Shown here one piece after another: positions 11,897 to 16,911 of a DNA stretch of 36,889 nt. How positions within the stretch are numbered: position 1 is the stretch's first letter; every line of letters begins with the position of its first letter. Origin of the DNA: Promethearchaeia archaeon (GTDB lineage: Archaea; Asgardarchaeota; Lokiarchaeia; Sigyniarchaeales; SOKP01); contig JAHQWH010000093.1 of the NCBI GenBank assembly GCA_029856105.1, positions 1-36,889 on the forward strand, written 5' to 3'. The notes beneath the pieces were generated by a model. The model saw only the letters and a program-made list of their open reading frames with translations. It was not told the origin of the DNA and searched no databases. Position numbers and translations under genes: made by a program.

Positions 11897-13591
11897 TTAA
11901 AATGAAAAAGCAAAATAAATTGCTGTATAAATTAAAGCTCCGATTACGAAGGCACCTATAGCCCCCAATCTAGTAAAAAAAGTTTTTTTCATGTCGGGTT
12001 TTAGAACTTCCTTCGGGAAAACTTTCAGATTCTTTAGATATTTATTGAAAAGACGGTTTTCTTTTAAATCTAAAGTAATTGGAATTCTATAGGTTATAGA
12101 TTCGGTTCTAAATTCAACAACATCGATTGGAAGGCATAAATAAAATATTATAAAAACTATCACTACACACAATAACGAAGTGCCTAGAAGGTTATCAATT
12201 ATTAAACCCATTGTATCAGCAATTACCCACCCTTCGACTTGTTGAATCGTCATAAATACCAGTAATCCGCTTATTCCAAATATATCAAAGAAATCTAATT
12301 TTCTATACCACTTTCTCACATTAATCGACTCTACATTATTGGCGGCAACATAGTGGAATTTATAGTAAAATAATCGTTTGAACCTAAATTTCTTTAATTC
12401 TTCGTCAAACTGTATTATATCTCCATCTTTATTACCAAAATCGTAAAACAGAGATTTTACAACTAGCATTAAGCCATACATTAAGGATATCCACCAAACA
12501 AAAGGACCAAAAAATACCATCTGCGTTAACATAATTATGGCAAATATTATTAAAAACAACCCAAAGACTAAGTTGAATAATTGAAAATTAGTAGTACTTA
12601 CATCTGAAAATAATTCACTCTTCTTTAATTCCTCTCCTTCTCGTAAATTTGGATTACAATCTAAATAAGTGCTAAAATCCTCCTTGAACTGAGATTGATT
12701 TCTTAATTTCATTGGAGAAAACCACATTTCATAAAGTCTCTCCTTTGTAGCTATTTCAATATAATTTTGCTGAAACATTACCAAAATGATTAAGGCAAGG
12801 ATGTCTAAAATAGAAATAACGACAAAAGTCCAAGATAGTACAAAATCTGGTCCTGCTCTTTCAGCAGCAAATAAGGGGATTGCTGTCATAAGTTGTAAAA
12901 CGATAAAAGGAATCATTATTATAATCCAAGCTAATTTCGGGCCCGCGTGATTATTTTGATATCGAACTACTTCAATGTCTTTCCTAGGAATTTCCGTTAA
13001 CCACGGAAACCCTGGTCTTATTTCGTAAAAGAAAAGAAAATTCTTTGATTTAGAGAACACTCCCCGAAAGGGACTCAATAGAAAATATATTAATAAACCC
13101 AGCCCAATTCCTAGCATTGGAAGGCCAGTTACATAAAACCACGATGGTCCGCCAAGGAATACAGCGCTCCCATATTTTACTTCGTGACCAATGTCATCTC
13201 CGAATATAAGAAAAGAATATATGCCAACACTGATTAAAATTAATGCAGCTATACCTCTTGTTAACGTAATTGAATTAAACTTAACGAACTTTTCTATTGG
13301 TTCTCTTAAATCGCGCATTCTTTTTATTGTTAAAGAATTTTCTCGGAGGTAATAGGGCGTAATGAAAAACTTAGATGTTATTATCCCTCCAAAAACAATT
13401 ATTATGATATCAACAAATAGCGAGGGATTAAAACCTTCGAGGGTTATTCCAAAATCAAATCCCGTAAAAAAGAATAAAAATCCTAAAAACATTATAAAAA
13501 GTCCAGTAAATAGAAAAATAAAGCGTAAGATTCGCTTTTTAGGGTGCGTTAATTTTAATTTTTCAATTTCTTCGTTGTTTAAATAACTCAT
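11897..13591 (-). CDS. Multi-pass membrane protein with apparent internal duplication
   Basis: Alternating TM hairpins and soluble beta-rich segments; YIEIATKERLYEM resembles VVEFRTESITYRI. Confidence 0.7.
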   Translation of the reverse strand: MSYLNNEEIEKLKLTHPKKRILRFIFLFTGLFIMFLGFLFFFTGFDFGITLEGFNPSLFVDIIIIVFGGIITSKFFITPYYLRENSLTIKRMRDLREPIEKFVKFNSITLTRGIAALILISVGIYSFLIFGDDIGHEVKYGSAVFLGGPSWFYVTGLPMLGIGLGLLIYFLLSPFRGVFSKSKNFLFFYEIRPGFPWLTEIPRKDIEVVRYQNNHAGPKLAWIIIMIPFIVLQLMTAIPLFAAERAGPDFVLSWTFVVISILDILALIILVMFQQNYIEIATKERLYEMWFSPMKLRNQSQFKEDFSTYLDCNPNLREGEELKKSELFSDVSTTNFQLFNLVFGLFLIIFAIIMLTQMVFFGPFVWWISLMYGLMLVVKSLFYDFGNKDGDIIQFDEELKKFRFKRLFYYKFHYVAANNVESINVRKWYRKLDFFDIFGISGLLVFMTIQQVEGWVIADTMGLIIDNLLGTSLLCVVIVFIIFYLCLPIDVVEFRTESITYRIPITLDLKENRLFNKYLKNLKVFPKEVLKPDMKKTFFTRLGAIGAFVIGALIYTAIYFAFSF

Positions 13592-14253: not shown

Positions 14254-15492
14254 TTACAATTTAGCTAAATTTTCTAATGCGGTGTCGCACATTTTAAGTT
14301 TCGTACTATATTTTTCCATCAGCTCTGCAAATTTTTCCACTTCAATTTCCTTACTATCTTTTAACACTTTCAATTCATTAATAGTTCTTGCGATGCCAGC
14401 TTTTTTGTCTATCAATCGCTCTCGTTTACTATACGGTATTTTTTGTTCCAGTTTCCTTTTTTGGAACGTTTTAAACCTCTTAATGTTTAAATCCTTAGGT
14501 ACAAATTTGGTTAAATATATGGTGCTTTTTGGAACGAACGGTGCTAAATTTTCTGGGATAATAATAATTGGTTCAGGATCCTGAATTCTTTTAATCTCAT
14601 CGTAATCTAATAAATCCATTTTGTTTTCTTTCAATATATCTGTAACAATAGCCAAATTGCCGTCAATATTGCTTTTTTCTCCGCTTGATAAATCAGATAA
14701 CCCTTGGAGCATTTCCTTCCAGATTTCTCTAGATTTTTCGTAATAGAAATTTGCTTTTTGCTGTAACTTTCTAACTTTGTCTTTATTAATATTTGTAATC
14801 GAAGATTCTAAAGAAGCTCGAGCTTTAAGATTGCAAGCTTTACCCATATCAAAGTGAAATTGAGCTCTTAGTTGTTGCTTTTTCTTCTCTTCGTGTTTTT
14901 TCAAATAAAATAATCTTTTTGATAAAGAGCTTAAACCCGCATATAATTTTGAAGCGAAATAGATATTATAAGAATTTTCTTCCTTTAATGCAGCGATACT
15001 TTGTGCTAAAATTCGAGACTCCTCCGAATTCAATTCGAGATTTTCAGATGAAAGAGTTATCCCTAATTCGGTCTGATTAATAGCTGCGGCGCTAAAATAC
15101 GCAGCAGTTTTGTACATTTTGCTGCATTCTACCATCGCTATTATTGCATCCTCCCAATCTTCCTCATCTTCAAATTTTTCTGAGATATGAGAATAGGCTC
15201 TTGCCATCACCCATAAAGTACGCGCACACTCAAACATTAAATCTCTTATCTGAATTTCCTTATTGTTGTCTAAAGGTTCTAAAAAATTCGGTGTGATGTC
15301 TAAATCTTTTAAAATCTTAATTTGGTCTTCATTTTGATAGTTAATGTTTAAAATTTTAGTGTACTCTAAAACAAGGTTTAGATCGTCTAAACTAAAACTT
15401 TCTTCTTCTTTTTCTAAAGCGTCTTCAATTTTCTTTATTTTATAATGCAGATATCTAATACGCTGCATTATTTCGTTTGTAAAAAAAGTCAT
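14254..15492 (-). CDS. Alpha-helical protein, putative BRO1-domain homologue
   Basis: Collinear matches to BRO1 motifs: LMFECARTLWVMARAYSHIS, KMYKTAA, TLSSENLELNSEESRILAQSIAALK, FASKL, LRAQ...KA. Confidence 0.55.
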   Translation of the reverse strand: MTFFTNEIMQRIRYLHYKIKKIEDALEKEEESFSLDDLNLVLEYTKILNINYQNEDQIKILKDLDITPNFLEPLDNNKEIQIRDLMFECARTLWVMARAYSHISEKFEDEEDWEDAIIAMVECSKMYKTAAYFSAAAINQTELGITLSSENLELNSEESRILAQSIAALKEENSYNIYFASKLYAGLSSLSKRLFYLKKHEEKKKQQLRAQFHFDMGKACNLKARASLESSITNINKDKVRKLQQKANFYYEKSREIWKEMLQGLSDLSSGEKSNIDGNLAIVTDILKENKMDLLDYDEIKRIQDPEPIIIIPENLAPFVPKSTIYLTKFVPKDLNIKRFKTFQKRKLEQKIPYSKRERLIDKKAGIARTINELKVLKDSKEIEVEKFAELMEKYSTKLKMCDTALENLAKL

Positions 15493-15594
15493 CTTCCAAA
15501 CTTATAGTTTTTTATTTAAATTTATGTTAATTAAAATAATTTAATCATCATTTTAAAACCATTTTAAAAATATGAAAATTAATATACATTAAAA

Positions 15595-16911
15595 ATGGTT
15601 AATCAAAAAATATTTATTTTTGAATTTGTGAGTGGAGGAGGATACAATCAAGTTGAAATTCCTTCGTCTTTATTTTGTGAAGGTTATGCAATGTTAAGAA
15701 CCACAATAGAAGATTTCAAAAAATTAGGTTTTCAAATTATTACTTTATTAGATGTTAGGATTGAATTTTTATCTCAATATTTAAAAGCAGATATAATAAA
15801 ACTAGTTAATAAACACAATGATTACATAAAAACATATACCGAATGTGTAATAGAATCTTCTTATTGCTTTATTATTGCCCCAGAATTTTCAAATATTCTT
15901 TATAATTTAACAAAAATAGCAAAAGATAATAAAAAGACCGTTTTAAGCGTAGATTTGGATGGTATTGTTTTGGGAGCTTCTAAGCTAAAAACTTATAACT
16001 TCTTTCTGGAAAATAAAGTTAACACACCCCAAACTTATACCATCCCATTTAAAAAAAAATTTGATTTAGAATTTATACTTCAAAAATTTGCCGTATTAAG
16101 ATGTCCAATTATAATTAAACCTGAAGATGGGGTTGGCTCCGAATCAATATTTTACTTTGAAACTAAGGCGCAGATTATCCATTTTTTTGAAGATTCTAAC
16201 GAAAAACTTGATCTTAGTAGAAATTATATCCTCCAAGAATACATAGATGGCGAGGACTTAAGCGTATCAATAATTAACGGCGTACCCTCTAAAAAACCAG
16301 AAGCCATGAATCAGATAATTTTAAGCATCAATGCACAGATCATAAAATTTAAAGACCCAGTTAATGATTCCATCTACTTAGGTGGTTTTACGCCGGTAGT
16401 TGATTACGATTTTTTAAAAAATATCTTAGAAAAAATATTAGAAAACATGGATTTGTCTAGTTTTCGAGGTTATTTTGGCATAGACTTTATTAAAAAAGCG
16501 GATAATTCAATATATTTTATTGAGATTAATCCAAGATTGACCACCTCATATGTAGGGATTAGAAATATATTAGATTATAATCCTTTAGAAATGATTTTTA
16601 ACCAAGATAAACCTTCGCTTAATTTAAACAAATTACATCACCAAAGTTTTTCTAAATTTAATCAATTTGAATTAAAATATGTCGGAGAAGAAACATCCAA
16701 TGAAATTATTAGCAGAATTGTCCCAAAATTAATGAGTTTGATTCCAGAAATAGTAACACCTCCAATTGCTTTAAGTAAATCGGTGGTGGATCGAGACTTT
16801 TTGTATTATTGTTTTATAGCAACGAAAACAAAGGATTTGAATTCTTCAGAGAAAAGAATCTCTAAAATTATTAAGATTTTTGACGACTATAATTTTCAAA
16901 CGATTAAATAG
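15595..16911 (+). CDS. ATP-grasp ligase, tyramine--L-glutamate ligase (MfnD)-like
   Basis: IFIFEFVSGGG...EGYAML, IIAPE, IKPEDGVGS, GYFGIDF, IEINPRLTTSY. Confidence 0.8.
   Translation: MVNQKIFIFEFVSGGGYNQVEIPSSLFCEGYAMLRTTIEDFKKLGFQIITLLDVRIEFLSQYLKADIIKLVNKHNDYIKTYTECVIESSYCFIIAPEFSNILYNLTKIAKDNKKTVLSVDLDGIVLGASKLKTYNFFLENKVNTPQTYTIPFKKKFDLEFILQKFAVLRCPIIIKPEDGVGSESIFYFETKAQIIHFFEDSNEKLDLSRNYILQEYIDGEDLSVSIINGVPSKKPEAMNQIILSINAQIIKFKDPVNDSIYLGGFTPVVDYDFLKNILEKILENMDLSSFRGYFGIDFIKKADNSIYFIEINPRLTTSYVGIRNILDYNPLEMIFNQDKPSLNLNKLHHQSFSKFNQFELKYVGEETSNEIISRIVPKLMSLIPEIVTPPIALSKSVVDRDFLYYCFIATKTKDLNSSEKRISKIIKIFDDYNFQTIK

Follow-up and report, generated by a model that had tools for sequence, protein, structure and literature searches.

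A predicted archaeal BRO1-fold family, remote from its eukaryotic counterparts and equipped with novel accessory modules

The gene and its predicted domains

The stretch at positions 1 to 36,889 of contig JAHQWH010000093.1, from a Promethearchaeia archaeon (GenBank assembly GCA_029856105.1; Lokiarchaeia, Sigyniarchaeales), is referred to here as the window. The gene of interest lies on its minus strand and predicts a 412-aa protein, named P0001, that is annotated as "hypothetical". The original prediction, which was made from the sequence of the window, had assigned the open reading frame (ORF) at 14254-15492 to a putative BRO1-domain protein of the ALIX/Bro1 type. The ORF is real, with the length and strand given above. 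It opens with an ATG, and as the open frame runs only three codons further upstream, P0001 is a genuinely short form; orthologues that are 62-95% identical to it align from residue 1-3 to residue 410-412. An AlphaFold2 (AF2) model was built from a 21-sequence alignment (pLDDT 85.3, pTM 0.75). The following features were defined within the gene.

14254..15492, minus strand: whole gene, predicting the 412-aa BRO1-fold protein P0001, plus stop codon (ORF list, translation)
14527..15492, minus strand: BRO1-like domain, residues 1-322, with 3 N-terminal helices, a beta-hairpin, 7 long TPR-like helices and an extended C-terminal segment (AF2 model, VIA-align, Foldseek)
15250..15288, minus strand: beta-hairpin, residues 69-81, joining the N-terminal helices to the solenoid (DSSP strands 69-72 and 78-81 in the model)
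14902..15240, minus strand: helices H4-H7, residues 85-197, the best-conserved core (per-helix conservation, invariant columns)
14527..14580, minus strand: Pro-rich, extended end of the BRO1 domain, DPEPIIIIPENLAPFVPK, residues 305-322 (alignments A1 and A2, model, superpositions)
14428..14526, minus strand: basic linker, residues 323-355, of low confidence (pLDDT <50 at 331-354; composition)
14257..14427, minus strand: C-terminal antiparallel helical hairpin, 57 residues, 356-412 (pLDDT ~90)

In the model, the seven long helices occupy residues 85-289 and the extended segment residues 301-325. Conservation in the family is highest on H4-H7 and on the Pro-rich segment, with H6 and H7 the top helices. 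Invariant or near-invariant residues of the H4-H7 core are D84, L147, L152, E153, R160, A163, Q164, A180, G186 and S188, and E314 and P321 of the Pro-rich segment are retained even in the most distant branch (alignments A1 and A2). The linker between the BRO1-like domain and the C-terminal hairpin, the composition of which was also examined in relatives, contains 9 K/R residues against 2 D/E, and is probably flexible.

Structural comparison of P0001 with BRO1 domains

The predicted model of P0001 has the three-dimensional fold of BRO1, a boomerang of ~350 residues that serves in eukaryotes as the adaptor to the membrane-cutting ESCRT-III machinery. In a wide VIA-align search of 48,161 PDB representatives, which was run independently of Foldseek, five BRO1 representatives were found at Z 20.6-22.0, and the next fold was the TPR subunit of NatC at Z 11.9. 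Four of the five are BRO1-domain entries that superpose at an rmsd of 4.0-4.7 Å over 275-299 residues, residues 1-322 of the model lying on residues ~20-347 of the matched chain in the same order. The fifth is full-length ALIX (2xs1), for which 319 residues were aligned at an rmsd of 19.8 Å, a value that carries no meaning. The superpositions on BRO1 extend to residue 320-323 of P0001, and the alignments cover the beta-hairpin at residues 69-81, an element that is not found in ordinary TPR proteins. A second look with VIA-align recovered 16 entries for ALIX, Bro1, BROX and HD-PTP at Z 20.6-22.4, with LGN as the highest-scoring TPR protein at Z 11.4 and Sec17/SNAP at Z 8.7. The BRO1 matches in VIA-align include the complexes of ALIX with CHMP4A (3c3o) and of BROX with CHMP4B (3um3).

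Foldseek against the PDB returned 21 matches with E≤1e-3, and every one of them was a BRO1 structure (yeast Bro1 1zb1, BROX, HD-PTP or ALIX; E 9.5e-6 to 2.1e-4). The first match outside BRO1 was a designed repeat protein at E 0.019, a gap of approximately 100-fold, followed by Sec17/SNAP complexes at 0.065. TM-scores to the BRO1 structures are 0.43-0.57, and the sequence identity of P0001 to them is 9-15%.

A second model was examined from a distant group of proteins belonging to GTDB family f28, which is from another Asgard class. Of these proteins, which are ~510 aa long and 18-20% identical to P0001, only the BRO1 core aligns with it (E 3e-19 to 8e-16). The AF2 model has a pLDDT of 74.6, and its alignment included the Lokiarchaeial family, such that the test is not fully independent. 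The top 21 Foldseek matches are again all BRO1 (E 2.6e-7 to 6.4e-5, next 8.2e-3), and VIA-align places BRO1 at Z 23.1-25.6 (rmsd 3.5-4.2 Å over 307-314 residues) with the next fold at 12.2, a stronger match than that of the P0001 model. BRO1 structures align over 275-314 residues across the two models, compared with 141-200 in total for TPR proteins.

P0001 has neither TPR repeats nor a TPR or SNAP protein as its best structural match. A generic TPR/SNAP-like solenoid had been named in the original prediction as the outcome of AlphaFold and Foldseek modelling that would speak against a BRO1 domain, and the Z-scores of 20.6-22.4 against 11.4 and 8.7 contradict it. The peptides on which that prediction had relied are all present (residues 85-104, 125-131, 144-170, 179-183 and 207-211), and the Pro-rich stretch comes after them. 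The five peptides map to predicted helices H4-H8 in the best-conserved part of the family, with four of them within H4-H7. Their proposed collinearity with BRO1 holds at the level of the fold. At the sequence level P0001 is not significantly similar to BRO1, and the longest block has 6 of 27 identities to ALIX in the alignment originally proposed, which is not above chance by itself.

Sequence-level evidence

The curated cut-off of the Pfam BRO1 model (PF03097) is 35.1 bits. The relative P0149, which matches P0001 over its full length (E 1.3e-27), bears a precomputed PF03097 tag and reaches 33.3 bits on this model (E 3.2e-8), with residues 9-182 aligned to profile positions 33-208. This is the BRO1-specific N-terminal half of the profile, and P0149 has no significant TPR match. 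An f28 relative reaches 17.7 bits (E 0.0018). Nothing scored above the cut-off in 400 Asgard species genomes. Further support comes from language-model features, as the ESM Atlas neighbours of P0001 are clusters of eukaryotic BRO1, PalC and PDCD6IP proteins, and its own cluster is auto-named 'putative BRO1 domain-containing protein'.

Several results weigh against a BRO1 assignment. P0001 itself has no Pfam BRO1 match at E≤10, nor a match to any TPR model, and a phmmer search with P0001 against PDB sequences found no BRO1. Family profiles A1 and A2 retrieved from the PDB just HhH (helix-hairpin-helix) proteins or one engineered TPR protein, with no BRO1 chain. In addition, an ordinary TPR protein of family f13 (L006:1453-2520, minus strand) scores 31.4 bits on Pfam BRO1 (E 1.2e-7). 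This protein has TPR_1, TPR_2 and TPR_12 above cut-off, and its BRO1 match runs through the TPR-like core of the profile (positions 138-310). As such a protein can reach 31.4 bits, the match of ~33 bits in P0149 is not decisive alone. Searches of PDB sequences with phmmer using P0149 or the isolated C-terminal hairpin likewise found no BRO1, and no steadiness box (SB), the ESCRT-I hairpin discussed below.

These results would be expected if a TPR-like solenoid had converged on the BRO1 shape, or if AlphaFold had been drawn toward BRO1, and P0001 were not homologous to the eukaryotic domain. The identity to BRO1 structures of only 11-15%, the modest TM-scores and weak MIT/TPR signals on one helix pair also fit such an origin. 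It is nevertheless improbable given that in each of two independent models BRO1 leads the top TPR protein by 10 Z units, and given that elements foreign to TPR proteins are matched too, namely the N-terminal helices, the beta-hairpin and the extended C-terminal segment. Convergence is also at odds with the location of the P0149 match in the BRO1-specific half of the Pfam profile without significant TPR matches, and with the independent support from language-model features. P0001 is therefore very probably a homologue of BRO1. It is the fold evidence, as predicted, and not the Pfam scores of ~30 bits, that carries this case, and because sequence scores stay below the Pfam cut-off, P0001 is filed as a remote BRO1-fold homologue and not as a member of PF03097. 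To this extent the putative BRO1-domain identity originally proposed is supported by the predicted structure.

Other weak matches were set aside. Those to Pfam BRO1 in families f13-f14 (L006, L008 and L014) belong to ordinary TPR proteins, and sub-threshold matches to DUF5788 (E 0.018) and SHOCT-like models on the tail of P0001 were judged uninformative. Two 508-aa proteins of family f16 (L009:1210-2736, plus strand; L010:556-2082, minus strand) are unrelated to the P0001 family by hmmsearch and hhalign. They match Pfam BRO1 weakly in the N-terminal part only (profile 8-104; E 7e-4 and 6e-3) and have no TPR signal.

Relatives and distribution

In a set of 5.8 billion proteins, P0001 has 736 relatives, all 'hypothetical' and from Lokiarchaeota/Promethearchaeota metagenome-assembled genomes (MAGs), that form 57 clusters at 50% clustering. 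Three kinds can be distinguished. Short forms resemble P0001, long forms of 500-770 aa have a Lys-rich linker after an N-terminal helix-hairpin-helix (HHH_5 in 10 of the 21 members, best E 1.7e-12), and a rare branch of ~400 aa, comprising P0149, P0151 and P0152, shares 25-29% identity. The source genome has three copies, which are the short P0001 and, in tandem on contig C15, two HhH-fused paralogues (L028:5268-7448, plus strand, 726 aa; L028:7927-9933, plus strand, 668 aa). Each paralogue consists of an N-terminal HHH_5, a Lys-rich low-complexity linker, the BRO1-like domain and the hairpin, a layout that is common in genomes of the family. The f28 proteins (L032:1174-2706, plus strand, and members in L031, L033 and L034; 7 homologues known in all) have a different tail, in which an acidic, disordered stretch (~361-428) precedes a small beta-rich domain (~444-472) and two helices. 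The HhH-fused paralogues, like the C-terminal hairpin module, had been missed by the original prediction.

Among the 400 Asgard species genomes, the family was found in 127 of the 134 genomes of one Lokiarchaeial GTDB family (f1; 13 genera) and in 4 of the 5 genomes of f28, and was absent from every other Asgard family sampled. Profile A1 found nothing in one closed genome of the sister family f3. No relative of P0149 was seen in the species-representative genomes, and as a query it reaches neither f28 nor f3.

Such a very patchy distribution is what would be left by recent horizontal transfer of a BRO1 gene from a eukaryote into one Lokiarchaeial family. This origin is highly improbable, as the identity to all eukaryotic BRO1 structures is 9-16% with no sequence-level match, and the archaeal proteins form three branches that have diverged deeply, with 26% and 19% identity between them, and that span at least 2 classes. 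The accessory modules, HhH and hairpin, are archaeal in type, and the syntenic position of the gene is stable across genera.

Five MAGs that carry orthologues 73-83% identical (L052, L057, L061, L075 and L087) bear the submitters' labels of Nanopelagicaceae bacterium or of Hermod-, Hod-, Odin- or Thorarchaeota. The close match of their orthologues to those of Promethearchaeota MAGs suggests that these labels are mistaken. Adjacent to the C15 paralogues are genes for a NosD beta-helix protein, a DUF2299 protein and a helix-turn-helix (HTH) protein, with no ESCRT genes.

The C-terminal hairpin

The C-terminal hairpin superposes on the SB at the C-terminus of ESCRT-I proteins (PF09454, Vps23_core), which is likewise an antiparallel helical hairpin of ~60 residues. 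The best VIA-align shape matches are the Vps23/TSG101 cores 2p22_A, 2caz_D, 2f66_A and 6vme_B (Z 9.2-9.7, rmsd 1.3-2.4 Å), with 2p22_A at Z 9.7 and an rmsd of 1.3 Å over 60 residues. The modelled likeness is one of shape, and a generic one, as numerous unrelated hairpins come close in score, among them integrase coiled coils and the CdvA and CHMP4B hairpins at Z 8.5-9.4.

At the sequence level, the hairpin differs from the SB in having no significant match in Pfam or the PDB. No Pfam SB match was found in P0001 or its relatives, and on the whole genome Pfam Vps23_core gave sub-threshold matches only, none of them in the P0001 gene. Searched against the PDB, the hairpin profile A5 gave only chance-level matches, and neither it nor the single sequence retrieved a Vps23 chain, which counts against an SB identity. 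In the source genome, a hidden Markov model (HMM) of the hairpin found only the three paralogues. Other signals point towards ESCRT-I. A profile of the P0149 branch (A4) matched yeast Vps23 SB chains in the PDB through its hairpin, at E 0.61 and 0.91, and matched no BRO1 chain. By hhalign, profile A5 aligned with residues 630-678 of a 704-aa protein from the same genome (P 4.6e-4, probability 33%), and Pfam Vps23_core matches this protein weakly at residues 626-666 (E 0.033). The protein (L029:9016-11130, plus strand, contig C225) is the best in-genome match of the hairpin, contains Zn-ribbon and PH-like parts, and has its gene next to that of the second ESCRT-III. Makarova et al. 2024 (PMC10936438) describe SB-containing Asgard proteins such as Znr_CC_PH_SB, a family that the 704-aa protein fits. 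The hairpin and the SB also share the pattern L..K..l..Ti.eL..l...g.I....F.

The tie between hairpin and SB draws on three weak, concordant signals and is suggestive, not established; that residues 356-412 are of SB type is a possibility that falls slightly short of an even chance. A matching hairpin (E ~5e-7) is also present in a 284-aa f28 protein (L036:1369-2223, minus strand), where CDC48_N and CDC48_2 come before it and a Zn-ribbon after it, making the hairpin a mobile module.

ESCRT partners and proposed role

The genome encodes a full set of ESCRT partners, with the 704-aa SB-type protein as its ESCRT-I-like member. The P0001 gene is on contig C94, and all the ESCRT partner genes are on other contigs. 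Contig C8 contains an ESCRT-III gene (208 aa) divergent from a vps4 gene (MIT-AAA-Vps4_C), followed by Vps25-like and EAP30/Vps22-like ESCRT-II genes. A second ESCRT-III gene (216 aa) is on C225, and Vps28-like genes are on C16 and C2. P0001 thus stands alone outside the ESCRT operon, as had been proposed from the window. Both ESCRT-III proteins terminate in an acidic stretch and an amphipathic helix.

The reading we favour, with some confidence, is that P0001 is a BRO1-fold ESCRT-III adaptor in which a BRO1 domain, a basic linker and a hairpin are combined. Such a cytoplasmic adaptor would have three parts, the BRO1 domain (1-322), the flexible basic linker (323-355) and the hairpin (356-412). 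By helix order, H4-H7 would be equivalent to the BRO1 helices that bind CHMP4/Snf7. Eukaryotic BRO1 domains hold the C-terminal helix of CHMP4/Snf7 or CHMP5 on a concave hydrophobic patch. As ALIX, Bro1 and BROX bind CHMP4/Snf7 in this way, the conserved concave H5-H7 face is proposed to bind one or other of the two ESCRT-III proteins by its C-terminal amphipathic helix; by this analogy, the chances that P0001 binds ESCRT-III are about even. The ALIX residues that contact the ligand are F199, I212 and L216, and F179 and L183 of P0001 would align with contact residues under the by-eye register of the original prediction. The hairpin may pair with the SB hairpins of ESCRT-I-type proteins or may dimerise the adaptor. 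In that case P0001 would recruit ESCRT-III filaments, in parallel to ESCRT-II, wherever ESCRT-I-like factors or the membrane mark a site, and the HhH-fused paralogues could do the same job at DNA. In this respect the proposed role would be that of ALIX in eukaryotes, performed with other accessory parts.

Some observations tell against this role. The family was not found in any of the 14 genomes of f3, two of which are closed and encode ESCRT as well, and is for that reason not a core part of ESCRT. No ESCRT or trafficking genes were found near P0001 orthologues in 9 loci. Lastly, the C-termini of the ESCRT-III proteins look more like MIM1, the Vps4-binding motif, than like the 'LxxLxxW' motif of CHMP4.

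The same distribution and gene neighbourhood would fit a true BRO1 fold with a ligand other than ESCRT-III. P0001 would then be a peptide- or helix-binding scaffold for chromosome or nucleoid handling, or for envelope or membrane-protein biogenesis. The HhH_5 and Lys-rich linker of many relatives hint at the first of these functions and the conserved neighbours of the gene at the second, and some eukaryotic BRO1 proteins act beyond CHMP4 alone, such as rhophilin, and HD-PTP with STAM2 and endofin. Overall this scaffold role is unlikely, as all the characterised BRO1 domains among the structural matches are ESCRT-linked adaptors and the hairpin is weakly tied to ESCRT-I steadiness boxes. HhH fusion is also compatible with a role in ESCRT, given a preprint according to which Asgard ESCRT-III binds DNA (10.1101/2021.11.29.470303).

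Returning to the ESCRT-III adaptor, a wider and rather doubtful proposal is that BRO1 was an Asgard invention predating eukaryotes. A BRO1 domain joined to an SB-type hairpin would have bridged ESCRT-I-like complexes and ESCRT-III, as the ancestor or sister of the ALIX/Bro1 bypass route, and the HhH paralogues would tether ESCRT-III to DNA. If true, HhH-tethered ESCRT-III would link membrane scission with chromosome handling in Lokiarchaeia. A concrete candidate protein pair is offered by the BRO1 domain and the C-terminal helices of the ESCRT-III proteins encoded in its own genome.

Relationship to known BRO1 proteins

P0001 resembles eukaryotic BRO1 proteins over the whole fold of ~320 residues, with the same order of elements, at Z 20.6-22.4 and an rmsd of 4.0-4.8 Å over 276-299 residues (ALIX/PDCD6IP 2oew, 3c3o, 2oev; yeast Bro1 1zb1; HD-PTP/PTPN23 3rau, 5cru, 5mk0; BROX 3r9m, 3zxp, 3um3). 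Like BROX it is short and mostly BRO1, and like the eukaryotic hosts of BRO1 its genome encodes ESCRT-III and Vps4. It differs in its archaeal host, in its low identity and sub-cut-off Pfam score, and in lacking a V domain, a Pro-rich C-terminal region, a phosphatase domain and a CAAX box. In place of these it has the basic linker and the 57-residue hairpin, to which the paralogues add an N-terminal HhH. On the predicted structures, the family is an archaeal one with a BRO1 fold, remote from its known eukaryotic members and novel in its accessory modules.

ALIX/Bro1 is among the few widely conserved eukaryotic ESCRT components without an accepted archaeal counterpart. The 2024 survey of Makarova et al. 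(PMC10936438), in the parts of the article available to us, reports that the ALIX/Bro1 part was not found in Asgard archaea, and the architectures described there do not include an SB fused to BRO1. Eme et al. 2023 (PMC10307638) claim 'Bro1' homologues of the ESCRT-III regulator type in Asgard archaea. From the available sections of that article, these proteins are from Hod-, Njord- and Thorarchaeia and Heimdallarchaeaceae and were identified with model PF18097, and the examples, at 75-154 aa, are too short for a BRO1 domain of ~350 residues and belong to another family and lineage than P0001. The main text of the recent ESCRT or structure-based Asgard surveys consulted makes no mention of Bro1/ALIX as an Asgard finding. 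Judging from the models, the part not found by the 2024 survey seems to exist in Asgard archaea. If two Asgard classes have a full-length BRO1 fold, the origin of the ESCRT-III adaptor would date from before eukaryogenesis, barring very old transfer or convergence, and the architectures of BRO1 with an SB-like hairpin, and of HhH with BRO1 and hairpin, hint at the early wiring of ESCRT modules.

Conserved neighbourhood of the P0001 gene

The P0001 gene is in a syntenic block that is conserved across genera. A gene for an ATP-grasp_3/preATP-grasp_3 protein (15595-16911, plus strand) is divergently paired with it in 8 of 9 orthologous loci, down to orthologues of 54% identity. No functional link between the two is evident. 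They are separated by the following region, which presumably holds the promoters of both genes.

15493..15594, no strand assigned: 102-bp intergenic region shared with the divergent ATP-grasp gene (ORF map)

Other conserved neighbours predict NifU, an alpha/beta hydrolase, a PRPP synthetase and membrane proteins. On the other side of P0001, the gene at 11897-13591 (minus strand) predicts a 564-aa multi-pass membrane protein without a Pfam family, and its counterpart was found only in the locus of the closest relative (L047). As the block in eight other genomes is without this gene, it may be a recent insertion.

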